Shown here: positions 4,803 to 46,373 of the stretch, in pieces
How the letters are laid out: each line of letters starts with the position of its first letter
Position numbering within the stretch: the stretch's first letter is position 1
From: Candidatus Gottesmanbacteria bacterium
GTDB lineage: Bacteria; Patescibacteriota; Microgenomatia; UBA10105; UBA927
DNA length: 64,000 nucleotides
NCBI GenBank assembly: GCA_963711735.1
Contig: CAVQFA010000005.1
Location: forward strand, 7,525-71,524
Direction of reading: 5' to 3'
Position numbers and translations under genes: made by a program
The notes under the pieces: model-generated
The model's input: only the letters and a program-made list of their open reading frames with translations
Databases searched by the model: none
What the model was told of the DNA's origin: nothing

Positions 4803-4804
4803 AC

Positions 4805-6448
4805 TTATTCTGTCTGGAATACTGCCGCACCTGATGACTGATACATAATCCTGAGAAATGGGTATTGAATCTGTAATGATGTTGGACTTCCGTCTTTGCG
4901 GGTATAGAGAATATAACGGATTGTGGATTGTTCAAGCCAATCTTTGGCTTCTTTGGTAGTCATTTGCAGATGAAAGAATGCAAGAGCCTGTGACTTTTTC
5001 TCTTCAGCATTGATTGTTTCAGCCAGATGTCCCGAGTAAGAGTTATGTCCTGACAAGGCAGGAACAAGCATATCCATATGTGTGGCTGGATTGGCAAGCA
5101 CCGCGTCGGTAAACGGCTTTTTCCCTTCCAAATAGGCAAATCCGTTATACATATCCGTCGGGAGAAAAAGTAAAGGGTCACTGGGAGGACGGTTGGCGGG
5201 AAGTTTCCACCCGAGCTCCCACATGAGAGTCGGAATTGTGACAACTCCGTAGAGAACAAGGAGTATGGAGAGAGCTACCGGTGATGTCATATGAAAACGA
5301 TTTTTGATAATTTCAGAGATTTTCACAATTCCGTACGCGGCAAAGACTCCGAAGAATGTAAAGGATATGGGTGCCAGAACGCGGAGATTTGAGAGTCCTA
5401 TAGCCTGCGGGACAGGGGAAAGAAAGATGGTGTATGTGACGAGGATAAAGAGAAGTCCGAAGAGCTCACCCCCGGTCATTTTTTTAAACCGCACAATGAC
5501 TCCAGCGATAAAAGGAATAACGACCGGTCCGATGGAAAGAAGTAAAAAAGGGATTGTCGTATAACTGTCCTGGTTTGCTTCCCAGATTTTTGCCTGGTTG
5601 TACGGAGGGAGTGTCAGCTCGTAATTCATAATAAAGAACATCACCATTGCGGCAATCCCGATGACACCATATCCGATGAGCAAATTTTTTTCCGGCAGCT
5701 GTTTGCGGGTTATAAAAATAAAACCTCTGACACAAACAAAGAGTCCGAAAATGAGGACTGCCTGCACGGGATTTACCGACGCAAAAACAAGAGTCACGAT
5801 AAGGGCTAGCAGTATGCGTTTTCTTGTACGCGGTTGCCATGACGGATCAAAAAGAACGAGGAAGAAAAGCATGGACATGAGTGTCCGAAGAAGATGATGC
5901 GGCGCGCCCCCGAGCCGGTCAAAGGCGAAGTGTGGTGTGCCCCAGATCTGAAACGGCCACCACGCCATGCCACCGGCAGCGGCGTGTACGCGGTTTATCA
6001 TGGATGTGGAAAATACTGCGAAGAGAAAACCGATAAGTGCATGCATGGATTTGCCCGGAAAAAATGTTTTCATGATGCGCCAGATTGACAGGATGACAAA
6101 GAATGAAAGGAGTAAAACCCACAAATTGTATGAGTATGCAGGAGGAAGTCCGATGAATCCTCCGAGTTTCCCCATCATGACGTTATTCCAGTACATGAGA
6201 TTGGCGGGGGTAGCTTCGTGGGTGAACTGGTTTGCCGCAAGGAACGCTCCGTGTGCACCCTGGAAGAAATGATTGAGAAGGTAAAAGTAATCTTCCCAGT
6301 AATGGATGGTGCCGAGGTATACGGTGCCTGCGGGCTGGCGGATAAGGTCAGTAAAGAATGCAAGGGAGTTCAGGATGGCCATTCCGATGCTTACGATAAA
6401 TACGATAATAAAGGGCCGAAGTTTCATATGGAACTTTGAATGTCCCAA
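4805..6448 (-). CDS. Polytopic membrane protein (about 12 TM plus a ~100-aa C-terminal soluble domain), possibly a GT-C-type glycosyltransferase. Intact paralog of 3098..4802.
   Basis: 547-aa ORF, highly hydrophobic. N-terminal HYWEDYFY motif and C-terminal QYPFL motif shared with its paralog. No confident family assignment. Confidence 0.6.
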   Translation of the reverse strand: MGHSKFHMKLRPFIIVFIVSIGMAILNSLAFFTDLIRQPAGTVYLGTIHYWEDYFYLLNHFFQGAHGAFLAANQFTHEATPANLMYWNNVMMGKLGGFIGLPPAYSYNLWVLLLSFFVILSIWRIMKTFFPGKSMHALIGFLFAVFSTSMINRVHAAAGGMAWWPFQIWGTPHFAFDRLGGAPHHLLRTLMSMLFFLVLFDPSWQPRTRKRILLALIVTLVFASVNPVQAVLIFGLFVCVRGFIFITRKQLPEKNLLIGYGVIGIAAMVMFFIMNYELTLPPYNQAKIWEANQDSYTTIPFLLLSIGPVVIPFIAGVIVRFKKMTGGELFGLLFILVTYTIFLSPVPQAIGLSNLRVLAPISFTFFGVFAAYGIVKISEIIKNRFHMTSPVALSILLVLYGVVTIPTLMWELGWKLPANRPPSDPLLFLPTDMYNGFAYLEGKKPFTDAVLANPATHMDMLVPALSGHNSYSGHLAETINAEEKKSQALAFFHLQMTTKEAKDWLEQSTIRYILYTRKDGSPTSLQIQYPFLRIMYQSSGAAVFQTE

Positions 6449-6888: not shown

Positions 6889-7899
6889 TTGGTTTATAGT
6901 CCTATGAAGGCTCATCAACAATCATGGCGGGGGAAAAAGGTTCTGATAACCGGTGGCGCGGGATTTATCGGTTCAAATCTCGCAATTGCGCTTGTCCACA
7001 CAGGAGCGGACGTCACGGTTCTTGATAATCTAACACCGCATCAGGGGGGAAATCTTTTTAACCTTAAACCTGTTATCAAGGATATTGAAATTGACTTTTC
7101 CGATATCCGTGATGAGGGAGCGGTGAAAAAAGCAGTCCGGGGAAAAGATTATATCTTTCACCTTGCGCGGCAAACTGACCACATCATGAGCCTTACCAAT
7201 CCCTTTCCCGATATCGATGTTAACGTGCGTGGTACGACGATTCTCCTTGAAGCGGTCCGGTATATTGCTCCTCACGCAATATTTATTTATACGGGTACAC
7301 GCGGACAATACGGTCACGCCGTAAAACTTCCGGTATCGGAAAGCGCACCCACGAATCCCCGCGGTATATATGAGATTACGAACCTGACAGCCGAAAAAAT
7401 CATCCAAGTCTATCATGACGTACACAAGGTGCGTTCAGTGATGCTCAGGCTTACTAATATCTACGGACCCAGAAGCCAGATGAAACATGATCATTACGGG
7501 GTCGTAAACTGGTTTATACGCTTAGCTCTTGAAGGAAGAGTAGTAAAAGTATTCGGAGACGGCATGATGAAGCGTGATTTTCTCTATATTGATGATGCAA
7601 TCGACGCGATACTGAAAACTAGCGTATGCGAAAAGTGCTTCGGAGAAATACTCAATGTCGGTATAGATAAGGGGACGACTTTTCTCACGCTTGTAAAGAC
7701 AATTATCCGTCTTGCCAAAAAAGGGTCGTGGGAATACGCGCCATTTACGCCTGAGCGTGCTTCACAGGATCCCGGTGATTTCATAAGCGATATTACAAAA
7801 ATCAGAAAATTGACAGGATGGAATCCGACTACTACATTAACTGAAGGACTTGAACAAACCATCTCATACTACCGGGAACATCTCCGCGAATATATCTAG
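6889..7899 (+). CDS. NAD-dependent sugar epimerase/dehydratase (SDR family; UDP-sugar 4-epimerase or 4,6-dehydratase-like). Start probably at 6904.
   Basis: Rossmann motif VLITGGAGFIGSNLA at the N-terminus, 336 aa. First gene of a + strand glycan cassette. Confidence 0.85.
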   Translation: MVYSPMKAHQQSWRGKKVLITGGAGFIGSNLAIALVHTGADVTVLDNLTPHQGGNLFNLKPVIKDIEIDFSDIRDEGAVKKAVRGKDYIFHLARQTDHIMSLTNPFPDIDVNVRGTTILLEAVRYIAPHAIFIYTGTRGQYGHAVKLPVSESAPTNPRGIYEITNLTAEKIIQVYHDVHKVRSVMLRLTNIYGPRSQMKHDHYGVVNWFIRLALEGRVVKVFGDGMMKRDFLYIDDAIDAILKTSVCEKCFGEILNVGIDKGTTFLTLVKTIIRLAKKGSWEYAPFTPERASQDPGDFISDITKIRKLTGWNPTTTLTEGLEQTISYYREHLREYI

Positions 7900-7951
7900 T
7901 GAAAAAACGAACGGTGACAACAGCCCGACGGACGTGCTATAGTACCTTTTA

Positions 7952-8644
7952 ATGAAGCTTTCTTCCGTATCATTTCTCATCCCTACCTATAAAGATGAAC
8001 GCACCATAGAATCCGTCGTGCGTGATGCTGTGCGTGTAGGGAAACAGGCAGCAAAACAGTTTGAAATTATCGTTATCAACGATGCAAGTCCTGATAATAC
8101 CGGGAACGTGCTTGCACGGCTTGAACAAAGTATAAAAGAACTTCATGTCATAACGCACAGGATAAATGCAGGGTACGGAGCGACGATAAAGGATCTCTAT
8201 TATGCAGGAAAATCCGAGTGGCTCTTTACCGTACCCGGGGATAACCAGATCCCGGTTGAAGAACTTCTTACTCTGGTTCCTTTTGCCGGCAAAGCTGACA
8301 TGATTATCGGCTGGCGGGTAAACAGAAATGATCCGCCGGACAGGCTGAAACAATCCAGAGTGTACAACTCACTTCTCGGAACACTCTTCGGACTTACGCT
8401 TCATGACGTAAATTCCGTCCGTCTCATGCGGTCATCTATCATGAACCGTATCCGTCTTGCCACTTCTTCCGCATTTGTGGATGCGGAACTGGCCATCCGT
8501 GCAGAAAAAGAGGGACTCTGCGTCTTGGAGATTCCGATTGACCATAAAGCGAGAAACGATGAGAAACCGGGAGGCGGAGGCAGTTTGCGGACAATCCTTC
8601 CGACAATTTTTGACATGGTGTGGTTTTGGATACTGTCAAATTAA
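7952..8644 (+). CDS. GT2 family glycosyltransferase.
   Basis: SFLIPTYKDERTIESVV...IIVINDASPDNT pattern. 230 aa. Confidence 0.75.
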   Translation: MKLSSVSFLIPTYKDERTIESVVRDAVRVGKQAAKQFEIIVINDASPDNTGNVLARLEQSIKELHVITHRINAGYGATIKDLYYAGKSEWLFTVPGDNQIPVEELLTLVPFAGKADMIIGWRVNRNDPPDRLKQSRVYNSLLGTLFGLTLHDVNSVRLMRSSIMNRIRLATSSAFVDAELAIRAEKEGLCVLEIPIDHKARNDEKPGGGGSLRTILPTIFDMVWFWILSN

Positions 8645-8649
8645 ATCTT

Positions 8650-9786
8650 ATGATACCTATCTGTAATCTGACACGACAATACCGGTCGTTGCAACCGGAT
8701 GTAGATGCGGCTGTGAGCCGGGTTCTCGCGCGCGGGATGTTTACCCTTGGCGCCGAGGTTGCTGCATTTGAGAAAGAGTTTGCATCGTATCTGGGAGCAC
8801 GCTTCGCAATCGGTGTCGGATGCGGTACTGATGCTCTTACGCTGGCAGTCAGATCTTTGGGTTTGGGGAAAGGCGATGAAGTCATACTTCCTGCCAATTC
8901 GTATCCGACAGTATTTGGTGTCGCATTATCCGGTGTAACTATCCGCCTTGCAGACTCTAATGAATTGGGTTTGTTAGACATATCCAGGTTGAAACGTGCT
9001 GTCAGCAATAAAACAAAGGCAATTATTCCCGTTCACCTCTATGGGAATCCGGCAGATCTCAATGCCTTACATGATTTTATACTCGGAGTGAAGCAAAACA
9101 TTTTCGTGATCGAAGATGCGGCGCAGGCACACGGAGCGGAAGTTCAAATTTCACAAAGTGCATCCGCTGAAAAAATATGGAAGAAAGTCGGTGTGGTGGG
9201 GGATATCGGCATTTTCAGCTTCTACCCGACAAAAAACCTCGGAGCATACGGAGACGGCGGGATGGTAGTGACGAACAACCCCAAAACTGCAACAGTTTTG
9301 CGGGAGCTCAGGCAATACGGGGAAAAGACCCGGTATCAAAGCGAGAGAGTATCAGGCGTATCGAGGCTTGATGAGCTGCAGGCGGCTATACTCCGCGTTA
9401 AGCTGCGGCAATTAGATGCGTGGAACCGCCGTCGTCGGGAGATTACCGGGTATTATGCACGGGAACTTGAAGGAACAGGAGACATATCGCTTACAGCTGT
9501 CAAAAATCATCCCTCAACAAAATCCTGTTGTCATCTGTTTGTCATCCGGACAAAAAAGAGAGATGAGTTAAAGGAATTTCTGGAAAAGAAGGGGACAGGG
9601 AGTGCTATCCACTATCCGGTACCCATCCATCTCACCCCCTCGTTCGGGTATCTGGGGTATAAAAAGGGCGATTTTCCAATTGCAGAGGCGTTATCAAAAG
9701 AAGTCCTTTCCCTCCCTCTTTTTCCGGAACTCACGGACACGGAAGCATCAAAAGTCGTACAAACCGTGAAAGCATTTTTCCGATAA
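8650..9786 (+). CDS. DegT/DnrJ/EryC1/StrS-family PLP-dependent sugar aminotransferase.
   Basis: DALTLAVRSLGLGKGDEVILPANSY, IFVIEDAAQAHGAE and FSFYPTKNLGAYGDGGMVVTN are family hallmarks. The ORF opens at 8620; the internal Met at 8650 gives a typical MIP N-terminus. Confidence 0.88.
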   Translation: MIPICNLTRQYRSLQPDVDAAVSRVLARGMFTLGAEVAAFEKEFASYLGARFAIGVGCGTDALTLAVRSLGLGKGDEVILPANSYPTVFGVALSGVTIRLADSNELGLLDISRLKRAVSNKTKAIIPVHLYGNPADLNALHDFILGVKQNIFVIEDAAQAHGAEVQISQSASAEKIWKKVGVVGDIGIFSFYPTKNLGAYGDGGMVVTNNPKTATVLRELRQYGEKTRYQSERVSGVSRLDELQAAILRVKLRQLDAWNRRRREITGYYARELEGTGDISLTAVKNHPSTKSCCHLFVIRTKKRDELKEFLEKKGTGSAIHYPVPIHLTPSFGYLGYKKGDFPIAEALSKEVLSLPLFPELTDTEASKVVQTVKAFFR

Positions 9787-10055
9787 TCTCCCACGGGGTC
9801 CACCTTCGTCCTGCATAGATATACTACGGCGGATAAACCATGCCGTGCATTGTTTCCCATCTGACGTCTTTACACCGCAAAGCATTTGAGAGTATGTGTG
9901 CGTTTGGGATAAGCATCGGGTAATCAGCTGCCTTACGATGATCGTGTTTATGCGGTGTGCAAACGCAGACGGGATCCCTCAATGCACGTCACCCGTTAAC
10001 CAAACAACTCTATGTGAAATTGGTATAACACGAAATCTTATGGATTTGGTACTAT

Positions 10056-11603
10056 GTGGGTATGTTCTTCAAAGCAAAACACATTGTTCCGGGAGTACTT
10101 GCTATAGTCTCTCTTGTCCTTCTCATTCTGTTTCTTTCCTGGCACTACCGGATAGGGATGGTCCGGTATTTCGATGCGGATGAGTACGCGCATATGCACT
10201 GGGCGGCAAAGATTCTGGAGGGTAAGCGTCCGTATATAGATTTCCTCACGTTTTTCACCCCCGTATTCCACTGGATCCTTTCTCCTGCATTTGCATCAGG
10301 TTGGGGGACGACGGAGCCCTTTATCAGTGCGCGTCTTATCATGTTTCTCATTTTTGTCGGAAGTGCGATGATGACGGGAGTTCTTGTATGGCAGATCCGG
10401 AAAAGCCTGTGGCAGGCAGTGCTTGCCGGTGCAATCCTTGCGTTTCTCCCTTTGCCGTTTGATAAGCTCCTGGAGATCCGTCCGGATACCCCCGCAACGC
10501 TCCTAATGCTCCTTGCCGTATCATTCCAAATCATATGGATGAAGACGGGTAAACGCAGCCTTTGCTTTATATCGGGTATATTCTGGTCACTTTCCGTCCT
10601 TATGCTCACGAAAATGCTCCCAAATATGGCAGTTGGGGCGTTGGTAGGCTTACTATATATAATAGGTAGGGAGAAAGGTGAGGAATACAGGAAAAAACAG
10701 GTTTTTCAGGAGATACTTGCCTACATAGGCGGAATGGCAATACCGGTTCTCCTTTTTGGTCTATGGACCCTTACCCTTGGTAATCTCCCGCTTGTGTGGT
10801 ACTCCCTGACGCTTCTTCCCGTTGAGGCAAATAAGATAAGCAGGTATTTCATTATGATGCCGGATCTTTTTTTCTATCCCAATGATATTTATTACGGAAC
10901 AAGCGGGTGGGGAAGAGAGATCCTCGTCAATCATACACTCTGGGTGATCGGGCTTCTTGTGGGTTTAATCAGGCTTGTCGCACCTTTACAGAATCCTCTC
11001 GGACGGAAAAACTGGCTGGCGGAACTCCTGGTAGCATCCCAGTGTTTTGTTCAGGTATTGTTCTATACCAAGATAGTACCTCTCAAGCACGCCCAATATT
11101 TAATTCCCATTGCACCGTTTATCGCAATATATACCGCTGATGCGCTTGGCATGGTATACCGGACAGCTGCCAAAAAAACTATCCTTCAGGGGATGTTTAT
11201 CGGAGTATTTCTCATCGGCGCGTATTTTTTGGTCCAGGTATTTTCAGCTGCACACAGCCGCAAGCTTGAGTGGACGAACACAGCCGATTTATCTGCCGTA
11301 GAAAAACTATACCGTACGATCCCCATGTCAGAACCGGTTTTAGACCTCGACGGACGGATGCTCTATAACCCGGATGGATATTATGCATGCTGCATCCCGT
11401 TCGGGCAGTTTGCCCACTTCCTCTCCCGTCCTTTACCGTCGTTACCTCAAGCGCTTGAAGACGGTCATGTCAAATACATAAACCAGGGAGGTTTAAAGCG
11501 CGTATCAACGCTCCCAATACCGGATCAGCAGTATATATACGGAGCGTACCGTTCCCTACACGGCGATGACACGTTTCTTGTCCGGAATGATATACCGGAA
11601 TAG
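10056..11603 (+). CDS. GT-C fold membrane glycosyltransferase (ArnT/PMT-like), paralog of 47380..48879.
   Basis: 515 aa, more than 10 TM. First-loop acidic motif YFDADEYAHMHW and a FTPVFHWILSP motif shared with 47380..48879 (FGDEMVHVQY / CTPILHWILVP). Confidence 0.6.
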   Translation: MGMFFKAKHIVPGVLAIVSLVLLILFLSWHYRIGMVRYFDADEYAHMHWAAKILEGKRPYIDFLTFFTPVFHWILSPAFASGWGTTEPFISARLIMFLIFVGSAMMTGVLVWQIRKSLWQAVLAGAILAFLPLPFDKLLEIRPDTPATLLMLLAVSFQIIWMKTGKRSLCFISGIFWSLSVLMLTKMLPNMAVGALVGLLYIIGREKGEEYRKKQVFQEILAYIGGMAIPVLLFGLWTLTLGNLPLVWYSLTLLPVEANKISRYFIMMPDLFFYPNDIYYGTSGWGREILVNHTLWVIGLLVGLIRLVAPLQNPLGRKNWLAELLVASQCFVQVLFYTKIVPLKHAQYLIPIAPFIAIYTADALGMVYRTAAKKTILQGMFIGVFLIGAYFLVQVFSAAHSRKLEWTNTADLSAVEKLYRTIPMSEPVLDLDGRMLYNPDGYYACCIPFGQFAHFLSRPLPSLPQALEDGHVKYINQGGLKRVSTLPIPDQQYIYGAYRSLHGDDTFLVRNDIPE

Positions 11604-11696
11604 TATAGATTAATTATATTCATCGAATATTCCCGAAATATTCAGAAATACTTAAGCGTAGTTGCAAAATTGTCCGGAAATGTATACTATACACAC

Positions 11697-11722
11697 GAAA
11701 CTCAGAATTGTATCTGAGTTTC
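11697..11722 (+). terminator. Hairpin GAAACTCAGA-attgta-TCTGAGTTTC (10-bp perfect stem) followed by TTGGTAT, about 95 nt after the GT-C gene. Candidate intrinsic terminator or regulatory hairpin.
   Basis: Inverted repeat read directly at 11697-11722. Confidence 0.3.
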
Positions 11723-11800
11723 TTGGTATATGCCCCTCTAATCAGCTTTTTCGCCCTGACGGGCTTCAAATCTGAGTAAGACGGGCATATAAACTCTATT

Positions 11801-12523
11801 ATGTCCAAAAAGCGGACTTCCCTTGATCTTACCCTCGTGTTACCGTGCTGGAATGAGGCACTTCTTCTCGTTGACAGTGTAGAGCGTATCCGCGAAGCGC
11901 TCGTCATATCGAGATTCCGTTGGGAGATCATATTTGTCGATGACAAAAGTTCCGACAGCACCGCAGCGCTTATAAAAGAGCTCGTGAAGAAAAACAAGAA
12001 CTACCGGGCGGTATTTCATAAAACAAATACAGGCAGGGGACAGACCGTGGCTGACGGGATACGTAAAAGCCGCGGTACGGTTGTCGGATATATGGATGTA
12101 GACTGCGAAGTATCACCCATCTACATACCGACAATAGTCAATATGATTTTGAAAGGCAAAGCGGATATGGTCCTTGGAAAACGGCTCTACAGAACAACGC
12201 TGTCATCTATCGTCCGCGAGCTGCTTTCTGCCGGTTACAGGGTAATGGCAGACAAAATGGTGTCAACCGGGGGTTTGGACACGGAGACAGGGTATAAGTT
12301 TTTTAACCGGAAAAAAATTGTACCCATTTTACGGTTTGCGAGGCATCCCCACTGGTTTTGGGATACGGAAATAGTAGTCTTTGCCAGGCGGGCGGGACTC
12401 CGGGTTGTTGAGGTACCGGTATTATTCCTCCGCAGGTTTGACAAGAAATCATCAGTAAATATGGTTGAAGATGTTGCGGATTATCTGCAAAATCTGTGGG
12501 CTCTGTGGCGCAGACTCCTCTGA
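11801..12523 (+). CDS. GT2 family glycosyltransferase.
   Basis: LTLVLPCWNEALLL...IIFVDDKSSDST and YMDVDCE acidic motif. 240 aa. Confidence 0.75.
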   Translation: MSKKRTSLDLTLVLPCWNEALLLVDSVERIREALVISRFRWEIIFVDDKSSDSTAALIKELVKKNKNYRAVFHKTNTGRGQTVADGIRKSRGTVVGYMDVDCEVSPIYIPTIVNMILKGKADMVLGKRLYRTTLSSIVRELLSAGYRVMADKMVSTGGLDTETGYKFFNRKKIVPILRFARHPHWFWDTEIVVFARRAGLRVVEVPVLFLRRFDKKSSVNMVEDVADYLQNLWALWRRLL

Positions 12524-12564
12524 ACACGTTTCTTCATTGTCAAGGGAATCCCGTACGCGGTAGA

Positions 12565-13320
12565 ATGGTTTCTATGTCGAAGACATATAGCGTATCTCTT
12601 TATGAAAGCATAAATAAAGTCGAACGGACACATTTTTGGTTTCAATCCCGCGACAGAGCGCTCCGTATGCTTATTAAACGGTATATTCCCAAACCGTCAG
12701 GAAAGTCATTCCTCGAGGTCGGGTGCGGAACAGGAGTCGTTATACGGACGCTTGAGGATATGGGTTTTACAACTACCGGTCTTGACGTCAACGCAAAAGC
12801 TTTAGCCTTTGCGAAAATAGGAACACACGCAAAGTTTATCCGACAATCTTTCCATTCTCTTATTCATACGGGAAAATATCATGCACTCGGCATGTTTGAT
12901 GTTCTTGAGCACCAGAAAGATGACCAGGCATTTTTAAGGAAAGCAAATACGCTTCTTAGGCCCGGTGGGTATCTATTCATCACCGTGCCGGCTCTCCACT
13001 CACTCTGGAACGATGCAGATACGCTTGCCGGCCACCAAAGACGGTATACCCAAGACGGAATCATCCGAAAGGTCGAACATGCCGGATTTACCGTGAAATT
13101 TGTCAACTACTGGCAATTTGTACTGTTACCGCTTTATATTCTTTTCAGAGCGTATTGGCAGATGAAGCCTGACCGCGACATGGATATGTTTTTACATACC
13201 CCGGCAGAACCCGTCAATACGATCCTGCATTCACTTCTATACATAGAAAGGTTTTTTCTTTTCCGTATCCGGATACCAATCGGGTCATCGCTTATCCTTG
13301 CGGCAGAAAAAAGAGCGTAG
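12565..13320 (+). CDS. Class I SAM-dependent methyltransferase.
   Basis: Motif I FLEVGCGTGVV. ORF 12496..13320; the start is placed at the internal Met to avoid overlap with the upstream GT2. Confidence 0.75.
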   Translation: MVSMSKTYSVSLYESINKVERTHFWFQSRDRALRMLIKRYIPKPSGKSFLEVGCGTGVVIRTLEDMGFTTTGLDVNAKALAFAKIGTHAKFIRQSFHSLIHTGKYHALGMFDVLEHQKDDQAFLRKANTLLRPGGYLFITVPALHSLWNDADTLAGHQRRYTQDGIIRKVEHAGFTVKFVNYWQFVLLPLYILFRAYWQMKPDRDMDMFLHTPAEPVNTILHSLLYIERFFLFRIRIPIGSSLILAAEKRA

Positions 13321-13360
13321 TTGATACTTTTTTTCGAAAATGTGATATAAGAGAGAGGCT

Positions 13361-13897
13361 ATGAAGGCATTGAAGGCTATAGGTGTGAAAAAAGCATTTG
13401 CATTCGTTTGGTATGCGCTGCTCGGCAAAATTTTACACTGTGTGATTTTGCCTCAAGTCAGGGTGATTCTCATACGTCTTGCGGGAGGCAGAGTCGGATC
13501 AGACACTATTATCGGCAATGTAACATTTGCCAATCTGTACCACTATGGTTTTTCGAGATTAACCATCGGCAACCGCGTGTTTGTCGGTGATGAGGCAATG
13601 CTCGATGTCCGCGGAGGGATAACGCTCGAGGATGACGTGACTGTTTCCAACCGTACGTCCATCGTGTCGCACATAAACGTAGGATACGCCGATCATCCCG
13701 TCCAGAAGCACTATCCGACGAAAGAATCACCCGTTATTCTCAAAAAAGGAGCGTACATAGGAACCGCGGCCATAATCCTTCCGGGCGTAACCGTCGGGCG
13801 GGAGTCTGTCGTCGGGGCAGGAGCAGTTGTTACCCGTGACGTGCCGGAGAGAGTCGTTGTAGGAGGTGTACCGGCAAGGAAGATTAAAAAACTGTAA
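13361..13897 (+). CDS. Left-handed beta-helix (hexapeptide-repeat) acyl/acetyltransferase, sugar N- or O-acetyltransferase-like (PglD/WbpD-type).
   Basis: Hexapeptide repeats IGNRVFVGDEAMLDVRGGITLEDDVTVSNRTSIVSH...IGTAAIILPGVTVGRESVVGAGAVVTRDVPERVVVGGVPARKI. Confidence 0.82.
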   Translation: MKALKAIGVKKAFAFVWYALLGKILHCVILPQVRVILIRLAGGRVGSDTIIGNVTFANLYHYGFSRLTIGNRVFVGDEAMLDVRGGITLEDDVTVSNRTSIVSHINVGYADHPVQKHYPTKESPVILKKGAYIGTAAIILPGVTVGRESVVGAGAVVTRDVPERVVVGGVPARKIKKL

Positions 13898-13898
13898 T

Positions 13899-15041
13899 AT
13901 GATGCACATACCACTCACAAAACCATATTGGGGCCCTAAAGAAGAGAAGGCGGCTGTCCGGGCAATCCGGCAAACTTCAGGATCAGGTGACGGCCCGAAT
14001 ACCGCTAAAGCCGAGGCTCTCCTTCAAACGCTCACCGGTGCCGGGTATGCCATGCTCACGACATCCTGTACGCACGGGATGGAACTTGCTCTTGCAGCAC
14101 TTGTCATGAACGGAAAGTTGAAAACAGGAGATGAGGTTATCGTACCGAGCTATACCATGAGCTCGACTGCAAACGCCGCACTTCTATCCGGTGCAAAAGT
14201 CGTTTTTGCAGATATAGATCCCGTATTTTTCAATATAGATCCGGAGGATATCAAAAGGAAAATCACCAATAAAACACGCGGAATCATGATTGTCCATTAC
14301 GCAGGCATGCCATGCAGAATGGACGAGATCATGGAAATTGCCCGCCGGCACCACCTATGGGTTGTTGAGGATGCAGCGCATGCAATTGGGGCGTCATATA
14401 AAGATAAACCACTCGGGACATTCGGAGATATCGGCGTATATTCATTCCACGGGACCAAAAACGTAAGCTGCGGAGAGGGAGGAGCTGTTCTCACAAACAG
14501 TAAAGAACTTGCAGTCAGCATGGAAATATACCGGGCAAACGGTACCAACAGGAAGCAATTTTTAGAGGGTGTTATTGATAAATATAGTTGGGTCGGTAAA
14601 GGTAGTAGTTTTTTCTTATCTGATATACTTGCATCTATTCTATATGAACAACTAAAACAAATTACTACAATCAATACCAAAAGACAACAAATATCATCAT
14701 CTTTTACAAAATCGCTATCAAACTATTCAGACCTTATAGTACTTCCGTCAATTCCGAAATTTACCAAACCGAATTGGCATATTTACGCGATACGGTTTCG
14801 AAACCCCCAACATAAACGGATCTTTATGGCTCAAATGAGAAAGAAGGGTATCCAAGTAGTGTCTCACTATGTCCCACTCCATAGTGCGCCGATGGGAAAG
14901 ACCATATGGAAAGGGGAACTCCCGGTGACTGATGCAGTTGCCAATACACTTGCGCGGTTGCCTATCTATCCCGATTTAAATTTGAAAGAACGACGGTATA
15001 TAATATCTTCTGCCCAAAAAATATTGAAAAAACTGAGATAA
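13899..15041 (+). CDS. DegT/DnrJ/EryC1-family PLP-dependent sugar aminotransferase, second copy (WecE/ArnB/PglE-like).
   Basis: HIPLTKPYWGPKEE N-terminus, HLWVVEDAAHAIGASYKDKPLGTFGDIGVYSFHGTKNVSCGEGGAVLTN. ORF 13866..15041. Confidence 0.88.
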   Translation: MMHIPLTKPYWGPKEEKAAVRAIRQTSGSGDGPNTAKAEALLQTLTGAGYAMLTTSCTHGMELALAALVMNGKLKTGDEVIVPSYTMSSTANAALLSGAKVVFADIDPVFFNIDPEDIKRKITNKTRGIMIVHYAGMPCRMDEIMEIARRHHLWVVEDAAHAIGASYKDKPLGTFGDIGVYSFHGTKNVSCGEGGAVLTNSKELAVSMEIYRANGTNRKQFLEGVIDKYSWVGKGSSFFLSDILASILYEQLKQITTINTKRQQISSSFTKSLSNYSDLIVLPSIPKFTKPNWHIYAIRFRNPQHKRIFMAQMRKKGIQVVSHYVPLHSAPMGKTIWKGELPVTDAVANTLARLPIYPDLNLKERRYIISSAQKILKKLR

Positions 15042-15104: not shown

Positions 15105-16202
15105 ATGAAACCATATCTTTCTATAATCATTCCATATCATAATAGCGAAGATACAATCGGAAGGCTTGTGGAGTCGATATACCTCTCTCATAATGCACCG
15201 CTTTACGAAATCATCATCGTTGATGACGGATCAAGGAAGCAGCTCACGACTGACGGACCTTCACGAACAGACACAAGTTCACCCCTGATAGTCAGAAAAA
15301 ATCTGAAGAAACTGAATAAAAGATTAAAAATTATCCGGTTCAAAGTAAATAAAGGACCGGCTGCAGCCAGAAATAAGGGCGCAAAGCTTGCGCGCGGGAA
15401 GTTTCTCGTATTCCTCGACAGCGATGTAGAGCTTTTTCCTGATACGCTCCATAACCTCGCCCGTATCTATGAGGATGATCCGGATGTTGTGGCGCTGACA
15501 GGAGTCTGGGTAAAGGAACAGCATACGGATGCGTTTTTCCCTAATTTCAAAGCGCTTCGGGATTGGAGCTACTGGATAAACGAACGGGACAAAAGCGGGT
15601 ACTATTTCCTCTTTTCCACGCGTATCGCATCGATTAAAAAATCCGTATTTCTCAGGCTTGGCGGTTTTGATGAAATGTACCCCGGTGCGCTTGTGGAGGA
15701 TATTGAGCTTACGTACAGAATAGCCCGCCGGTATGCAATTATATTCGCTCCCGATGTACGGGTACGCCATGAATTTGAAAATTTTTGGCCGATTGCAAAA
15801 AAGTATTTCCTCCGCGCATATTATTGGACGAAACTGTACGAAAGACGCAAGAAATTTGATCCTGTTGCAACGACGCTCCAGGAAGCTATAACGGCGATAA
15901 GCGGAGTCGGCGTACTCGGGATTTTTGCTGTAGCTATCATCGCCGGTGCTTTCGGATACTGGATAGAAATGATTTCCGCGTCTCCTCTGGTTCCGCTTAT
16001 TCTGAAATGGCTCAATATTGCTCTTGCTGTGAGTTGGATTGTCACACTTATCATTCACACGCTCCTCGTGAGGACATTTCTCCTGTTTATGTATAAGGAA
16101 AAAGGACTGGCATTTGCGCTTCGGGGTTTTGGTACGGGACTCATCCTTTATGCGTTTATTGCGTCGGGGGCGTTGTGGGGGAAGGTGAAGAGATCTCCGT
16201 AG
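15105..16202 (+). CDS. GT2 family glycosyltransferase with C-terminal transmembrane helices.
   Basis: LSIIIPYHNSEDTIGRLVESI...IIIVDDGS, DSD motif FLDSDVE, and 3-4 C-terminal TM helices. 365 aa. Confidence 0.75.
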   Translation: MKPYLSIIIPYHNSEDTIGRLVESIYLSHNAPLYEIIIVDDGSRKQLTTDGPSRTDTSSPLIVRKNLKKLNKRLKIIRFKVNKGPAAARNKGAKLARGKFLVFLDSDVELFPDTLHNLARIYEDDPDVVALTGVWVKEQHTDAFFPNFKALRDWSYWINERDKSGYYFLFSTRIASIKKSVFLRLGGFDEMYPGALVEDIELTYRIARRYAIIFAPDVRVRHEFENFWPIAKKYFLRAYYWTKLYERRKKFDPVATTLQEAITAISGVGVLGIFAVAIIAGAFGYWIEMISASPLVPLILKWLNIALAVSWIVTLIIHTLLVRTFLLFMYKEKGLAFALRGFGTGLILYAFIASGALWGKVKRSP

Positions 16203-18210
16203 GTTGGGTTTGCGTCTCCATTGAAGGGCTTGCCGATGAGGGTAGTTCGAGTTTCGGTTTAATAATAGGTGTTGCTTCTCCGGACAACGGGGATAAAGGT
16301 TCTGCAAATTGTGACGTCCCGCTTTTCATATCGTTCACCGCCTTTTGCTCGTCTGCAGGCAGCGTTTTCATCACCGCATCCAACTGTGTCTGTACTCCCT
16401 GTCTGTCACCGGATGAGTCTTCGGGGAGAAGAAGCAATGTCTGTTTCAGGGATACCGCTTCTTTCAGAGGAATTTTCAGCTGCCTCCAAACATACGCGAG
16501 GTTATAATGGATATTGGGAAGATCCGGTTTGAGAAGCGCTGCAGTTTCAAGCTCGCGTGCGGCGGTTGTAAAATTTTGCTGGTTGATATAAATGCCTGCA
16601 AGCTCCATCCGAAGAAGCGGGTTTGTCGGATCCCGTTGAATAGCCTGTTGGTATGCTGCTACTGCCCACCCATCTGCACCGGTGACGATTGTCATGATGC
16701 TTCTGTAGAGACGTGCGAGTGTTTCCCAACCCGAAACATTTAAAGGGTTGAGGTTTGTGGCAATTTTTACTTCGCGGATTGCCTGTTGGAGGAGCTGCGA
16801 TATGAGCTTTCTGTCATCCTCCGTCAAAGCAGCACTAGGAGACCCTGATTTATTGGCGTTTGCCGCAAGTGCTTCTGAAAGTGCGTAATTCGTTTGGCTG
16901 TATGTGAGATGGTAGGCAGACATCATCGGATTAAGCTGAAGCGCACGGATTTGGAGATTATACGTTTTCGTACCGTCTTTCGCCTGCAGGGCCTTTAATG
17001 ATTGGTAATAGGTGAGCTCTCCTATATAGTAGCGGAGAGTGAAATATCCGCCGATACCGACAACAACAAGCCCCAGAATTCCTACTGCGAAAGACACCCA
17101 ACCGATGTGTTCAGGGATGGCACCGTCTGCTTTAATTATTTTTGAGTGCTTTTTCAGAAGAAGAATAATTGCCAGAAGCGAAAAAAGCGCAATATGGATA
17201 GGAACGAGGATGAGAGCCAGCGCAGTCATGCAAATAACGACACGCATGGCGACAGTTTCCTTCATAATCCCGCGGAAAAGAATGAATCCGACTATGGCAA
17301 GTGCAGCCAACCCCACGATACCTTCCGTTGTCCCTATATGAAAAAGCGTGTTTGCGCTTGTGGTAAAACGTATATTCCATATCGGTGAGAGGTTCATAGA
17401 TGCAGGCCGGGCGGCTGTAAATGCAGGGAGGAAATTTTCGATGCCTACACCGGTGAGGGCATATACGGGATTTTTGAACATTTCAAGCATTATTGACCAC
17501 GATACGCCGTACGGTAAGTGGATCGACGAAAATTTCGGGAGTATGTGCCAGATGAGAGACGGCAATGCAACTCCCATGATGGCAACTGATACGGCGCTAA
17601 ACGCAATACCAGCTTCTTTTTTTTCTTTTATTGAGCTGAGACATTCATCAATTGCCAGCGGAAAAAGAATTGCAAGAACGGCAAGTGTCACGAGGGATGA
17701 TCCGACCGGAGACCAGATAGGATCGGATAAAAATGTAATATCCGGAAACATGAGCTTCGCTATGCCAAACGAAGTATAAATAGCGGAAAGAGCCAGTATT
17801 GACCCGAGTCCTATTGATGCCCATTTGAGGATTGACCGCATTTTTTCTGATGAAAAATCCGTAAGAAGGAGCATGACCGCAATAGCTATAAGAGGAATTG
17901 GTCCGACAGTATATGTGAGTGCTTCCCATTTATTTGTTGATGAGACAATGACGCTCAAAACACCGGCTCCTGCAAGAAGTACAATTGCGAGAAGTGCTGA
18001 CGGAAATGTCAGAGTAACCATGCGTGTTATCGCAGACCGTATCGACCAGAGGATGAGAACAAAAAGAGAGCAAATCACAAATAATACACCCTTATTCGTA
18101 TCGTAGAAGTTTTGTGTGACCGGGAGAAACCAAAGAACTCCAATTGTGAGTGCGGCAATAACAATACATTGATTTATCCGGGATAACGCAGAATAGACGC
18201 GTTCGCGCAT
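16156..18210 (-). CDS. O-antigen ligase (Wzy_C) family polytopic membrane protein with a C-terminal TPR domain and a PT-rich tail. Candidate protein O-oligosaccharyltransferase (PglL/TfpO-like).
   Basis: About 12 TM. The loop GVGIENFLPAF...NTLFHIGTTEGIVGL carries a conserved His, as in WaaL/PglL. TPR-like helices follow (YQQAIQRDPTNPLLRMELAGIYINQQNFTTAARELETAALLKPDLPNIHYNLAYV). The tail is TQTQPTEISSPSPTTPPTQ. Divergent from the pilin genes. Confidence 0.6.
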   Translation of the reverse strand: MRERVYSALSRINQCIVIAALTIGVLWFLPVTQNFYDTNKGVLFVICSLFVLILWSIRSAITRMVTLTFPSALLAIVLLAGAGVLSVIVSSTNKWEALTYTVGPIPLIAIAVMLLLTDFSSEKMRSILKWASIGLGSILALSAIYTSFGIAKLMFPDITFLSDPIWSPVGSSLVTLAVLAILFPLAIDECLSSIKEKKEAGIAFSAVSVAIMGVALPSLIWHILPKFSSIHLPYGVSWSIMLEMFKNPVYALTGVGIENFLPAFTAARPASMNLSPIWNIRFTTSANTLFHIGTTEGIVGLAALAIVGFILFRGIMKETVAMRVVICMTALALILVPIHIALFSLLAIILLLKKHSKIIKADGAIPEHIGWVSFAVGILGLVVVGIGGYFTLRYYIGELTYYQSLKALQAKDGTKTYNLQIRALQLNPMMSAYHLTYSQTNYALSEALAANANKSGSPSAALTEDDRKLISQLLQQAIREVKIATNLNPLNVSGWETLARLYRSIMTIVTGADGWAVAAYQQAIQRDPTNPLLRMELAGIYINQQNFTTAARELETAALLKPDLPNIHYNLAYVWRQLKIPLKEAVSLKQTLLLLPEDSSGDRQGVQTQLDAVMKTLPADEQKAVNDMKSGTSQFAEPLSPLSGEATPIIKPKLELPSSASPSMETQTQPTEISSPSPTTPPTQ

Positions 18211-18299
18211 AGTGATCCTATCATACCCAAGTGCATGTTGAGTGTAAAGATATCATGTATATTGCATTTTATTCCGTGTGTTGACATACTGGATTTGAT

Positions 18300-19130
18300 A
18301 TGGAGAAAAATAAGGTATTCCGGTACGGATTTACCATCGTAGAACTTCTCATCGTTATCGCGATTCTCGTCATAGTTGTGGTTCTCGTTTTCACTGTTGG
18401 CATCAAACAATGGAGAAAAACGTTCGATACGAAGAGGAAAATGGATCTGGCAAAAATCCGTATAGCGTTTGAAAGCTTTTATGCTGACTACCAGTCGTAT
18501 CCGGATGAAAGCTATCTGACTCAATGCGGATCGACCGTATTGGACCCGTATGGGCTTAAAACTATACCGTGTGATCCGCAGACTAAACAATCATATTACC
18601 TTTATCCATCACCTGAAGGACTGACAAGCGGATACGTCGTTTATGCAGCACTTTCCAATACAGATGATCCTGACGTAGAGCGTTTAGGATGCAGCACACC
18701 ATGGGGATGCGGAATTCCCGGAAGTCCGGAATATAACTACGGTGTGGCGGCAAATATGTCAGTATACCTCGGAGAACCCACTGAAGGACCCGGAGATTTA
18801 CTGATACCGACTCCGAAATTCGGAGAACCGACATGGACACCCAAGCCGATACGGAAAACGCTTCCGCCCCGTCCAACAACCAGACCGACATGGGGGGGTG
18901 TACCTTTCCCGACCGTAACACCGGGAGGAGGAGGAAGCGGACCATGGCCTACAAATCCACCTGCACCGACGAATACGTCTGCTCCGGTTCCGACGGCAAC
19001 ACCGAAACCACCGACTTCAACACCCAAACCACCGACGCCGACGTCGCCGTGGATGCCCGGACCAAAGCCCACATATACACCGACACCGACGTCAAGTTCG
19101 CGTATAGGACCAGGACCGGGGGTAAATTAA
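18300..19130 (+). CDS. Type IV pilin-like protein (class III signal peptide) with a Pro/Thr-rich C-terminal tail.
   Basis: MEKNKVFRYG|FTIVELLIVIAILVIVVVLV prepilin leader, Glu at +5. FESFYADYQSYPDESY motif shared with the next two genes. Tail PPAPTNTSAPVPTATPKPPTSTPKPPTPTSPWMPGPKPTYTPTPTSS. Confidence 0.85.
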   Translation: MEKNKVFRYGFTIVELLIVIAILVIVVVLVFTVGIKQWRKTFDTKRKMDLAKIRIAFESFYADYQSYPDESYLTQCGSTVLDPYGLKTIPCDPQTKQSYYLYPSPEGLTSGYVVYAALSNTDDPDVERLGCSTPWGCGIPGSPEYNYGVAANMSVYLGEPTEGPGDLLIPTPKFGEPTWTPKPIRKTLPPRPTTRPTWGGVPFPTVTPGGGGSGPWPTNPPAPTNTSAPVPTATPKPPTSTPKPPTPTSPWMPGPKPTYTPTPTSSSRIGPGPGVN

Positions 19131-19170
19131 TTGTGGATTTATTTTTTTAATGGTGTATAGTAAATAGTAT

Positions 19171-19941
19171 ATGAACAAAAAACATTATTTTGTAACTGTA
19201 TCTTCAAATAAAATAGGATTTACCCTCATAGAACTTCTCGTATCCATAGCAATTATCGGGATCCTTGCCACAATGGTTGTTTTGAATATAATGGGATCAA
19301 TGCGGCGCGGCAGAGATGCAAAACGAAAAAGCGACCTCGCGCAAGTATCCAAGTCACTTGAGATGTACTACAACGACATGGGCCAGTATCCGCTCTCCGA
19401 CGGAGCAGGACAGATACTCGGATGCGGCGCTACCCGCACGGATGCATGTATGTGGGGAACAAGCGTTTTCGGTGATGAACCGTCAGGTATCGTTTACATG
19501 ATAAAACTTCCTACAGATCCGAAATCCAATGAACAATATTTTTATGAAAGCGCTGACGGAACATACTATAGAGTTTTTGCACACTTGGAGAATACCGGTG
19601 ACCCGAATTATAACGGTAACGGATATGTTGGGTCCAATTGCGGAACAACAGAAGGAGGAGGACCTTTTGAAGAAACTATAGATTGTACATATGGAGTAGC
19701 TAGCCCGAATGTTGTGTTGGAAACAGCTGAAATTCCTCCGAGTGAGCCGACAAATACACCCCCTTCGGGTCCCGGTCCGGCACCGACAAATACACCCCCT
19801 TCGGGTCCCGGTCCGGCACCGACAAATACACCCCCTTCGGGTCCCGGTCCGGTACCGACAAATACACCGTTTATGCCCGGACCACAACCGACAGCAACAC
19901 CTGCAACAAAACCACCGACACCGACGGTCTCGCCTATATAA
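19171..19941 (+). CDS. Type IV pilin-like protein with a tandem PSGPGPAPTNTP repeat tail.
   Basis: KIG|FTLIELLVSIAIIGILA leader, LEMYYNDMGQYPLSDG motif. Three 36-bp DNA repeats at 19749-19856 encode EPTNTPPSGPGPAPTNTPPSGPGPAPTNTPPSGPGPVPTNTP. Confidence 0.85.
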   Translation: MNKKHYFVTVSSNKIGFTLIELLVSIAIIGILATMVVLNIMGSMRRGRDAKRKSDLAQVSKSLEMYYNDMGQYPLSDGAGQILGCGATRTDACMWGTSVFGDEPSGIVYMIKLPTDPKSNEQYFYESADGTYYRVFAHLENTGDPNYNGNGYVGSNCGTTEGGGPFEETIDCTYGVASPNVVLETAEIPPSEPTNTPPSGPGPAPTNTPPSGPGPAPTNTPPSGPGPVPTNTPFMPGPQPTATPATKPPTPTVSPI

Positions 19942-19947
19942 TGCATT

Positions 19948-20448
19948 ATGAAAAAAGAAAAAGGATTTACACTTATTGAAATACTCGTTTCAATATCCAT
20001 CATGGCGCTGGTGCTGATTATTGCCATTCCGAACTTCGTATCCGCACGCGCACGCGCCCGTGACTCAAAAAATAAACAGGAAGCGAGAGAATTGAAAAGT
20101 GCCGTCCGGATGTACTATAACGATTATCAAACATACCCCGATGATGATGCCGGTGGCATATTAGGATGTGGCGCAAACGGTACAACCGCGTGCAGTTGTG
20201 CAGATACCTATAACTTTGCTGCAGGAGGGTCAGGATCAGACGTTGTCTATATGAAAACATTTCCTTCGGCATTCTGTGCAAATCCAATGACAATGCAGTA
20301 TTACCAACTTGATGATGCCGGTGAAACGTTTTGTATCAGAGTACCACTTGAAAACACCGGTGATCCTGATATAGCAACAAGCATGACGCAATGCTCTTCT
20401 TCCTGTCCCAACAGCATCGGTGCTTTTTATACTGTGTGTGAAGATTAA
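19948..20448 (+). CDS. Type IV pilin-like protein (short, no PT tail).
   Basis: KKEKG|FTLIEILVSISIMALVLIIAIPNF leader, VRMYYNDYQTYPDDDAG motif, several Cys. 166 aa. Confidence 0.85.
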   Translation: MKKEKGFTLIEILVSISIMALVLIIAIPNFVSARARARDSKNKQEARELKSAVRMYYNDYQTYPDDDAGGILGCGANGTTACSCADTYNFAAGGSGSDVVYMKTFPSAFCANPMTMQYYQLDDAGETFCIRVPLENTGDPDIATSMTQCSSSCPNSIGAFYTVCED

Positions 20449-20648: not shown

Positions 20649-41228
<20,580 letters not shown>

Positions 41229-44607: not shown

Positions 44608-45306
44608 ATGGACCTGCCCGGAAATCTCAACGACCCTAGTGGTGAGGGGAATGTACTTTCTCAGTATAAAATACCGATACTGCTCGGAGGAGTCAGCATT
44701 CTTTCCGTCATCATTGCCATCATTCTTCTTGTCCGGACGACCCAAAGTACCGATCCGATCAGTTTTTCCGATATAGAAGGGGATATTGCGGGTGTAAAAA
44801 CACAGTCGATAACGGTGGATATCGAAGGGGGAGTAGTACAGCCCGGTGTTTACACGCTGCCGGTAAATTCACGGGTAGAGGATGCAATTCTCAAAGCCGG
44901 TGGTCTTTCCGGGGATGCGGACACGGAAACGATCGCTAAAGCACTCAACCGCGCACAAATACTGGGGGATGGAGTGAAGCTTTTCATACCGAAAACGAAT
45001 ACCGACACGACATCGCACAATGTAGATTCTGCGACACGTACGAACGTATCACTTGATCCGGCGCTATTATCCGCAGCCGGATCCGGGTCGCAAAACATGC
45101 TTATACAGGATGGGACTTCTGTGAATATTCTTGTTAGCATTAACACCGCTGATGCAACTTCGCTTGATTCTCTGCCCGGAGTCGGTCCGGCAACAATTGC
45201 CAAGATTATAGCAGGCAGACCGTATGGGTCTTTGGAAGAGCTCGTGAGTAAAAAGGCAGTCGGCAAGGCGACATTTGCCAAAATTCAGGCTCTTATTAGT
45301 TTATAG
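44608..45306 (+). CDS. comEA: ComEA-like competence DNA-binding protein (N-terminal TM, SLBB domain, C-terminal tandem helix-hairpin-helix).
   Basis: TM ILLGGVSILSVIIAIILLV. SLBB-like VDIEGGVVQPGVYTLPVNSRVEDAILKAGG. HhH NINTADATSLDSLPGVGPATIAKIIAGRPYGSLEEL. Confidence 0.8.
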   Translation: MDLPGNLNDPSGEGNVLSQYKIPILLGGVSILSVIIAIILLVRTTQSTDPISFSDIEGDIAGVKTQSITVDIEGGVVQPGVYTLPVNSRVEDAILKAGGLSGDADTETIAKALNRAQILGDGVKLFIPKTNTDTTSHNVDSATRTNVSLDPALLSAAGSGSQNMLIQDGTSVNILVSINTADATSLDSLPGVGPATIAKIIAGRPYGSLEELVSKKAVGKATFAKIQALISL

Positions 45307-45458
45307 CATTGGGACGGTCTATATACGACCCTCCAGGATGCCCCAGGAAGGCTGATTTTACCGGTACCGGTTATATGATTCACAATTTAGATATCCGGAT
45401 GATTACATCATACTAAAATGAACATTCATATCCGATACCGTACAACATACAACCTACA

Positions 45459-46358: not shown

Positions 46359-46373
46359 TTTTGCATCTCTTCT

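Follow-up and report, generated by a model that had tools for sequence, protein, structure and literature searches.

Introduction

The genes of O-oligosaccharyltransferases (O-OTases) with a Wzy_C domain adjoin those of their pilins, and ligases and O-OTases with this domain are reported to require the His of an H-N-x-x-x-E motif (H286 in TfpM) (PMC9829042). In WsfB and PglL the Wzy_C domain is combined with C-terminal TPRs (PMC2943079). The DNA analyzed here, referred to as the window, is a stretch of 64,000 nucleotides (nt) from a Candidatus Gottesmanbacteria bacterium (Microgenomatia; contig CAVQFA010000005.1 of assembly GCA_963711735.1). It encodes three tandem type IV pilins beside a membrane/TPR protein of 684 amino acids (aa), which together had been proposed in a first-pass annotation to form a pilin O-glycosylation module. 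The working name FAM is used for the 684-aa protein and for its family. FAM and the pilin trio were partly supported as a candidate pilin or protein O-glycosylation module. The pilins, the WaaL-like neighbor and a recurrent linkage between them held up, while a catalytic His, conserved Pro/Thr (PT)-rich acceptors and a complete sugar cassette did not. No description of the FAM family was found in the literature on the Candidate Phyla Radiation (CPR) and Microgenomates covering O-antigen ligases and pilins.

Locus Layout and Pilin Identity

All coordinates are positions in the window. The four open reading frames (ORFs) matched the annotated positions exactly, and FAM was upstream of and divergent from the pilins with a measured spacer of 89 bp. 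The features of the locus are as follows.

16156..18210, minus strand: FAM, 684 aa, with an 11-helix transmembrane (TM) WaaL-like domain, a predicted extracytoplasmic TPR domain and a Pro/Thr/Ser (P/T/S)-rich tail (ORF; AlphaFold2 (AF2) model with pLDDT 84)
17029..18210, minus strand: FAM membrane domain, aa 1-394, WaaL/Wzy_C-like fold
16333..16974, minus strand: FAM TPR domain, aa ~413-626, predicted outside the membrane
16159..16320, minus strand: disordered P/S/T-rich C-terminal tail of FAM, aa 631-684 (pLDDT <50)
18211..18299: divergent intergenic spacer between FAM and pilin 1, 89 bp
18300..19130, plus strand: pilin 1, "type A", 276 aa, with a core (aa 1-165) and a PT-rich tail (nt 18795-19127)
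19171..19941, plus strand: pilin 2, "type B", 256 aa, with a core and a 75-aa PT-rich extension (nt 19714-19938)
19948..20448, plus strand: pilin 3, "type C", 166 aa, a GspG/ComGC-like small pilin without a tail

The three plus strand genes encode prepilins with class III signal peptides. All three products have the leader G↓FT(I/L)(V/I)E(L/I)L followed by a hydrophobic helix. The N-termini are ...RYG↓FTIVELLIVIAIL in pilin 1, ...KIG↓FTLIELLVSIAII in pilin 2 and ...EKG↓FTLIEILVSISIM in pilin 3. N_methyl/TIGR02532 matches were obtained for pilins 1, 2, and 3 (20.5, 32.5, and 34.9 bits, respectively). Pilin 1 was marginal in Pfam (20.5 bits against a cut-off of 21.2) yet passed TIGR02532, and pilin 2 additionally matched the T2SSG/GspG domain. 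Exactly these three pilins were found in the window by a strict motif scan and again by a relaxed one, in agreement with the canonical leaders first annotated. The YYNDYQ(S/T)YPD motif said to be shared by the three is only approximate, reading FYADYQSYPD in pilin 1, YYNDMGQYPL in pilin 2 and YYNDYQTYPD in pilin 3.

As annotated, pilus assembly genes were not seen in the window, with no pilB/pilC/pilD-type domains among the scanned window ORFs of at least 150 aa. A promoter and terminator scan of the locus gave counts equal to those of shuffled sequences, and the promoter-like match in the spacer was at chance level. No tRNA or Rfam features were found across the window. Copies of FAM and the three pilins exist in public databases without a name, the FAM copy being identical.

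Linkage of FAM to a Conserved Pilin Set

Linkage was assessed in 80 genomic loci encoding FAM relatives and in four others, giving a total of 84. Related loci amounting to 1.2 Mb contained 37 motif-defined pilin genes, 31 of which were no more than 2 kb from the FAM gene. This corresponds to approximately 0.107 pilins per kb within 2 kb of FAM and approximately 0.008 per kb farther away (six in ~750 kb). Three of the six distant pilins form one trio in L011, set off by an 8.7-kb insert. The neighboring pilins are orthologs of the three in the window and keep the same A-B-C order. Type A orthologs measure about 200-240 aa and have a C-terminal module rich in Cys. Type B orthologs are about 170-220 aa and end in C-x-Y-G-x-S-S-x-N, and type C orthologs are about 150-190 aa and end in ...Y-V-V-C-x-D. 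Pilins of these types flank FAM in 18 of the 84 loci, in at least five layouts and in nine of the 15 sequence clusters of the family. The layouts are as follows.

Divergent upstream, as in the window: L009, L014, L015, L016, L056, with L011 at a distance
Convergent downstream: L022, L023, L034, L052, L058
Co-directional upstream: L059, L066
Co-directional downstream: L061
Type A only: L036, L039, L062, L071

The two closest relatives of FAM also have a divergent pilin (on the P0002 contig and, as type A, in L089), and the linkage was seen in the P0002 and P0003 contigs. A metagenome scan run in the other direction, from pilin loci to FAM, retrieved mostly generic GspG-like pilins and had little to say on the linkage. 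The only true A-B-C trio in it was that of L091, with FAM divergently adjacent, and one pilin cluster (L090) was without FAM. The placing of pilin genes beside FAM was thus seen in the window and was recurrent outside it. As the adjacency was kept through repeated rearrangement, it points to a functional link between FAM and the pilins, and it is the strongest evidence for one.

Other loci weigh against a role dedicated to pilins. LeuRS (leucyl-tRNA synthetase), usually with ComEA-ComEC, is the divergent neighbor of FAM in 26 of the 84 loci with no pilins within up to 10 kb, and most of the 84 loci have no pilin neighbor of any kind. As FAM is found more often beside LeuRS without pilins, a role that is wider or of another kind has the same likelihood as one devoted to pilins. 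The LeuRS-adjacent order looks ancestral. In the window the pilins and approximately 20 kb of giant repeat genes are located between FAM and LeuRS-ComEA-ComEC.

The pilin-less loci favor an explanation in which FAM is a Wzy- or WaaL-like polymerase or ligase for a non-protein surface glycopolymer, with the TPR domain as a scaffold. It would join repeat units into a polymer or link them to an anchor in a lipid or the cell wall. The pilins would then be nearby only through clustering of surface genes or inherited gene order. FAM is core-like and syntenic with LeuRS-ComEA-ComEC in the 26 loci, as this explanation would have it. However, passive synteny does not explain an adjacency which survives at least five rearrangements in nine sequence clusters.

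ComEA and ComEC (Competence and MBL domains) are encoded in the window (44608-47405, plus strand) and in 21 related loci. In two loci of the Beckwithbacteria type, L066 (5741-8214) and L059, the pilin trio is immediately preceded by DprA and ComM. Given these DNA-uptake genes near the module, the trio might be competence-pilus pilins. A DprA/ComM link as a general feature was rejected, as it is confined to the L066/L059 clade.

Family and Fold of FAM

Pfam and NCBIfam searches with the whole of FAM matched only the C-terminal TPRs, which had also been annotated. A profile search with the membrane domain returned 5584 representative clusters at E ≤ 1e-3, of which 811 reached E ≤ 1e-30; among the best 150 matches listed almost all are 600-720 aa. 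The very large size of the family is a further point in favor of the glycopolymer explanation. TPR Pfam matches were present in 68 of 69 relatives scanned and weak Wzy_C matches in 10 of the 69 (best E 4.9e-6). Two Wzy_C matches were inspected, and both were over the equivalent TM7-loop-TM8 region and below the Pfam gathering score. A protein matching the FAM family profile at E 9e-50, P0168, carries PF04932. The family profile was also aligned to a second PF04932-bearing protein, P0172, with an hhalign probability of 92.8% (E 3.9e-7). The AF2 model of FAM has a WaaL-like three-dimensional fold, and its best structural match is WaaL rather than ArnT or PglB. Profile evidence and the modeled fold, both of which are needed for the link, place the FAM membrane domain in the WaaL/Wzy_C superfamily.

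Closer membership was not supported, which counts against FAM as a pilin-glycosylating transferase. Pfam Wzy_C had no match to the whole of FAM or to the membrane domain alone, even at E ≤ 10. PglL_A (PF15864) and Wzy_C_2 (PF11846) were found neither in the FAM Pfam scans nor among the top families of the 69 relatives. A Foldseek search of the FAM model against the PDB gave no significant match (best E 0.08), and hhalign of the family profiles against Escherichia coli WaaL alone was not significant (E 0.3-0.6). The short non-significant WaaL alignment is in the same register as the later significant one to P0172. The membrane-domain profile had no match to PDB sequences at E ≤ 10. The assignment of FAM to the Wzy_C/O-antigen-ligase family therefore stands for the superfamily, by profile and fold, and falls for a direct Pfam Wzy_C match. 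Judged by the features that define the known O-OTase families, FAM belongs to none of them. The most fitting place for it is a divergent branch of the WaaL-fold superfamily in the Microgenomates, without the His and fused to TPRs.

Topology and Predicted Active Site

The AF2 helices and the positive-inside rule gave 11 TM helices for FAM with the N-terminus inside. The short loops contain 13 K/R residues on the inner side and three on the outer side. A conserved loop of 66 residues (226-291) and the entire TPR domain are predicted to be outside the membrane. The TPR domain is thus predicted to be on the same outer side as the conserved loop, as in WsfB. A TPR domain in an extracytoplasmic position suits the recognition of proteins, as in the case of WsfB, PglL, and TfpW, and so argues against a glycopolymer enzyme.

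The outer-loop motifs of FAM are L-P-x-T-x-D-x-[YF]-D-x-N-K, S-x-N-K-x-E, W-T-P-x-G-S, and G-x-G-x-x-N-F-x-x-A-F-x-x-x-R-P-x3-N-x4-W-N-x-R-F. The top-conserved residues are all in four predicted outer loops (K40, N93, P168/G170, G254/G256, R/K268, N273, W278, R281, and F282). Position 268 is R/K in 85 of 85 relatives and position 281 in 81 of 85. R268 and R281 of FAM are each matched by an Arg in the alignment with P0172, a canonical Wzy_C protein, and one Asn is also common to Wzy_C enzymes. Such a concentration of conserved residues in outer loops is what an active site on the outer face would be expected to show.

The canonical His is not among the conserved residues. The A-H-N-x-x-x-E motif of the ligases (H338-N339...E343 in E. 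coli WaaL) aligns with S-A286-N287...H291 of FAM, placing A286 at the catalytic His position. Across the family this position is Ser in 52 relatives, Arg in 12, Ala in 10, and Gly in six. As the His is reported to be required in Wzy_C-domain ligases and O-OTases, the family is a His-less branch. The first-pass annotation had pointed to a conserved loop His, H291 (LFH291IGTTEG). This residue is five positions past the His position, where the canonical Glu stands, and it is His in only 39 of 69 relatives of the representative set and 34 of 85 of the locus set (the rest being Gln, Thr, or Tyr). It is neither conserved nor the catalytic His. H291 is commoner at loci with the full pilin set (12 of 15) than at others (22 of 66), a difference confounded by phylogeny. 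The loss of the His and the divergence at H291 tell against FAM as a pilin-glycosylating transferase.

As far as is known, Wzy polymerases share the pattern of a missing His and retained Arg residues. The same pattern in FAM, where the canonical ligase/O-OTase His is gone and the Arg residues are kept, was counted in favor of a glycopolymer enzyme.

The loss of the His also favors a third explanation, that FAM is a non-catalytic membrane-anchored TPR scaffold, similar in function to PilF, PilW, or Tgl, which stabilizes or sorts the three pilins. Two homologs carry the JGI label "Tfp pilus assembly protein PilF" and there were weak TPR-only matches to PilW. These PilF/PilW matches are to generic TPRs and far below the cut-offs (34 compared to 154 bits), and FAM was rejected as a PilF/PilW homolog. 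Peak conservation in the outer loops of the membrane domain, with two Arg and one Asn in common with Wzy_C enzymes, is an active-site pattern and makes a pure scaffold very improbable.

Pilin Tails

The long P/T/S-rich tails annotated on two pilins were borne out by composition. Residues 166-276 of pilin 1 are 57% P/T/S with 29 Ser and Thr residues, and residues 182-256 of pilin 2 are 61% P/T/S with 19. The tail of pilin 2 contains three copies of PSGPGP(A/V)PTNTP, encoded by a 36-bp DNA repeat present in 3.4 copies at 98% identity (19747-19868). The high identity indicates that the expansion of the unit was recent.

Pilin 2 has a complete type B core with 38-45% identity to eight orthologs, none of which has the 75-residue PT extension. 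In pilin 1 the Cys-rich C-terminal module of the type A orthologs is swapped for a PT tail of approximately 110 residues, and the orthologs have only short P/T/S linkers at this place. PT-rich tails were missing from all orthologous pilins aligned, which goes against them as the basis of a pilin glycosylation system. From the alignments the tails are a lineage-specific embellishment of this genome. As orthologs lack them, they cannot be a general acceptor that explains the older and wider gene linkage. The proposal that the tails are O-glycan acceptors is plausible for additional sites and fails for a general acceptor.

Type B pilins (those of the window, L009, L015, L016, L023, L052, L056, L059, and L066) have an invariant C-terminal motif, C-x-Y-G/C-x-[SA]-S-x-N. 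It is close to the C-terminus and is usually followed by T-T or V-T, giving a string similar to an N-x-T sequon. The motif could be a conserved modification site or could be purely structural.

Sugar Cassette and GT2 Partner

The genes on the other side of FAM are as follows.

15105..16202, plus strand: glycosyltransferase family 2 (GT2) protein with four C-terminal TM helices, convergent with FAM (Pfam GT2 4e-28)
6889..15041, plus strand: sugar-modification cassette
6889, plus strand: 4,6-dehydratase-like enzyme
7952 and 11801, plus strand: ArnC/DPM-like GT2s
8620 and 13866, plus strand: two DegT aminotransferases
10056-11603, plus strand: GT-C/PMT_2-like membrane transferase, 515 aa
12496, plus strand: methyltransferase
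13361, plus strand: hexapeptide acetyltransferase

The GT2 at 15105 is the most constant downstream partner of FAM in the clade of the window, with a homolog no more than 3 kb away in 12 loci. The arrangement is the same in the P0002 and P0003 contigs. The convergent 3' overlap of the two genes (16156-16202) is conserved: it is 47 bp long here, and the two closest relatives have overlaps of 4 and 38 bp. The tightest partner of FAM in this clade is this GT2 with the sugar cassette, and not the pilins, which favors a glycopolymer enzyme. Genes for Wzx, Wzz, or a phosphoglycosyltransferase were not recognized nearby, which does not. The glycopolymer explanation is judged rather unlikely.

One of the DegT aminotransferases exceeds the curated cut-off for dTDP-4-amino-4,6-dideoxygalactose transaminase. 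The cassette had been described as complete for glycan building. No initiating phosphoglycosyltransferase or Wzx-type flippase was recognized in the window protein scans, so "complete" is an overstatement, and the gap is also a point against FAM as a pilin-glycosylating transferase. The cassette looks like a polyprenyl-phosphate-sugar/GT-C system.

Its polyprenyl-phosphate-sugar synthases and GT-C protein provide a rival candidate for the pilin transferase and so detract from FAM. The pilins could be glycosylated by the GT-C enzyme at 10056-11603 (PMT_2/PIG-M-like), with polyprenyl-phosphate monosaccharides from the ArnC/DPM-like GT2s as donors, as for TfpW or Pmt, and FAM would serve another acceptor. 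The proven pilin glycosyltransferase TfpW is itself a GT-C enzyme, and the cassette contains ArnC/DPM-like GT2s, two sugar aminotransferases, an acetyltransferase, and the 515-aa GT-C-like protein. A GT-C homolog accompanies FAM in five to nine loci, but it is missing from most pilin-linked loci outside the clade of the window. The matches to GT-C enzymes are weak, with E 2.6e-4 for PMT_2 (short of the cut-off) and E 0.0023 against the PDB, and the product has no TPR domain. Modification of the pilins by this enzyme is considered quite improbable.

Two tandem paralogs of an unannotated family with ~10 TM helices and the motif HY(Y/W)EDYFY are encoded at 3098-6448 (minus strand). The second (3948-4802 with the overlapping ORF 3098-4354) looks frameshifted. 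Intact tandem pairs of this family adjoin the cassette in L011-L013 and L017.

Proposed Mechanism

The reading preferred here, held tentatively and at somewhat below even confidence, is that FAM acts at the outer face as a transferase of the WaaL/Wzy_C fold, using a lipid-linked glycan donor and having the pilin trio among its substrates. The identity of the pilins, the fold, the predicted topology, the conserved outer-face residues, and the recurrent linkage come from the results above, and from them we infer the catalytic activity, donor, acceptor, and modification site of FAM as follows. The active-site loops and the TPR domain would both be on the outer face of the cytoplasmic membrane, with the TPR domain docking protein acceptors. 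The membrane domain would move a polyprenyl-(di)phosphate-linked glycan onto Ser/Thr of membrane-anchored pilins. Transfer would take place before the pilins are built into a pilus of type IV or of the competence type. The conserved set of pilins A, B, and C would be the substrate of FAM or part of its substrates, and the PT-rich tails on two pilins of this genome would add many extra acceptor sites. The glycan may come from the adjacent amino-deoxy-sugar cassette and from genes elsewhere. Lipopolysaccharide synthesis is not known from CPR/Microgenomates bacteria, and a lipid A-core acceptor is therefore unlikely. A wider form of the proposal, in which the His-less WaaL fold with an extracytoplasmic TPR domain, found in thousands of clusters, would be a Microgenomates-wide protein (pilin) O-OTase, is doubtful.

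Other Features of the Window

Approximately 20 kb of the window (20649-40708, minus strand) consists of collagen-like G-x-T triplet repeats, with a GC content of up to 0.63 compared to ~0.45 elsewhere and with several frames open. The region reads as one or two giant surface proteins, of 3674 aa for 20649-31673 and of 1646 aa or more for 35768-40708, and the repeats may contain frameshifts or assembly problems. At the N-terminus an integrase-SAM-like segment precedes a TM helix. The last ~1900 aa, at the C-terminus, lack repeats and had no Pfam match in the stretch tested. In the distant relatives L001 (9350-9913) and L003 (9373-9954) a protein of ~190 aa precedes the FAM gene on the same strand. 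Its N-terminus is MerR-like, and a linker rich in P/S and a single TM helix are also present. The giant window proteins start with a similar design of an N-terminal domain plus a TM helix.

An ORF of 171 aa (40713-41228, minus strand) at the boundary of the giant repeat gene and LeuRS has only a phage-integrase N-terminal SAM-like domain (E 1e-14). LeuRS (41830-44536, plus strand) is in two ORFs in different frames which overlap at 43760-43827. These encode 665 aa with the catalytic and editing domains and 258 aa with the anticodon-binding domain. The split could be a frameshift, a sequencing error or genuine. A second and clearer GT-C/PMT_2 membrane glycosyltransferase is encoded directly past ComEC (47380-48879, minus strand; E 1.5e-12).

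Significance

A central role in host attachment and DNA uptake is ascribed to the type IV pili of the CPR/Patescibacteria. In a study of CPR pili, pilin glycosylation was a software prediction and the enzyme was not named (PMC11623550). FAM is a concrete candidate enzyme with a conserved set of three pilin partners, and heterologous testing is feasible without culturing the organism. If the proposal is true, FAM would be the first enzyme of CPR pilus glycosylation to be assigned and a new catalytic variant of the Wzy_C superfamily working without the canonical histidine. An active His-less WaaL-fold transferase would have implications for how the ligase/O-OTase superfamily as a whole works and would be a possible new enzyme for glycoengineering toolkits. 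If FAM builds a surface polymer instead, it would still be a widespread Microgenomates envelope enzyme, nameless in the few copies checked.

Comparison with Known Systems

Compared to the WaaL O-antigen ligase of Cupriavidus metallidurans (PDB 7TPJ/7TPG), FAM has 15% identity, no catalytic His, and an additional TPR domain, and its host is not known to make the lipid A-core acceptor. FAM resembles TfpW, the pilin arabinosyltransferase of Pseudomonas aeruginosa Pa5196, in having 11 TM helices; TfpW likewise has a periplasmic TPR domain and is encoded beside pilA. Unlike FAM, TfpW has a GT-C (ArnT-like) fold and a DDX motif, and its donor is polyprenyl-P-Araf.

FAM is similar to TfpO/PilO, TfpM, and PglS of Pseudomonas, Acinetobacter, and Moraxella in being a polytopic WaaL/Wzy_C-superfamily protein encoded beside candidate pilin substrates. 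It differs in having no Pfam-level Wzy_C match, in the replacement of the essential His by Ala/Ser, in the addition of a predicted extracytoplasmic TPR domain of ~220 aa, and in having 11 TM helices compared to 12-13. It is also linked to three pilins and not one, its host is a monoderm-like CPR bacterium, and its activity is a proposed one. PglS targets the competence pilin ComP; on the side of FAM, ComEA/ComEC are encoded in the window and DprA/ComM flank the module in the Beckwithbacteria clade.

Compared to WsfB, the S-layer O-OTase of Paenibacillus alvei, and PglL, the general O-OTase of Neisseria, FAM had no detected PglL_A or Wzy_C_2 domain and has no canonical His, and identity is too low for direct detection. 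Both enzymes share with FAM the arrangement of a Wzy_C-type membrane domain followed by TPRs. General O-OTases modify low-complexity Ser/Ala/Pro-rich regions, which the PT tails of pilins 1 and 2 resemble, and WsfB acts in a bacterium without an outer membrane.

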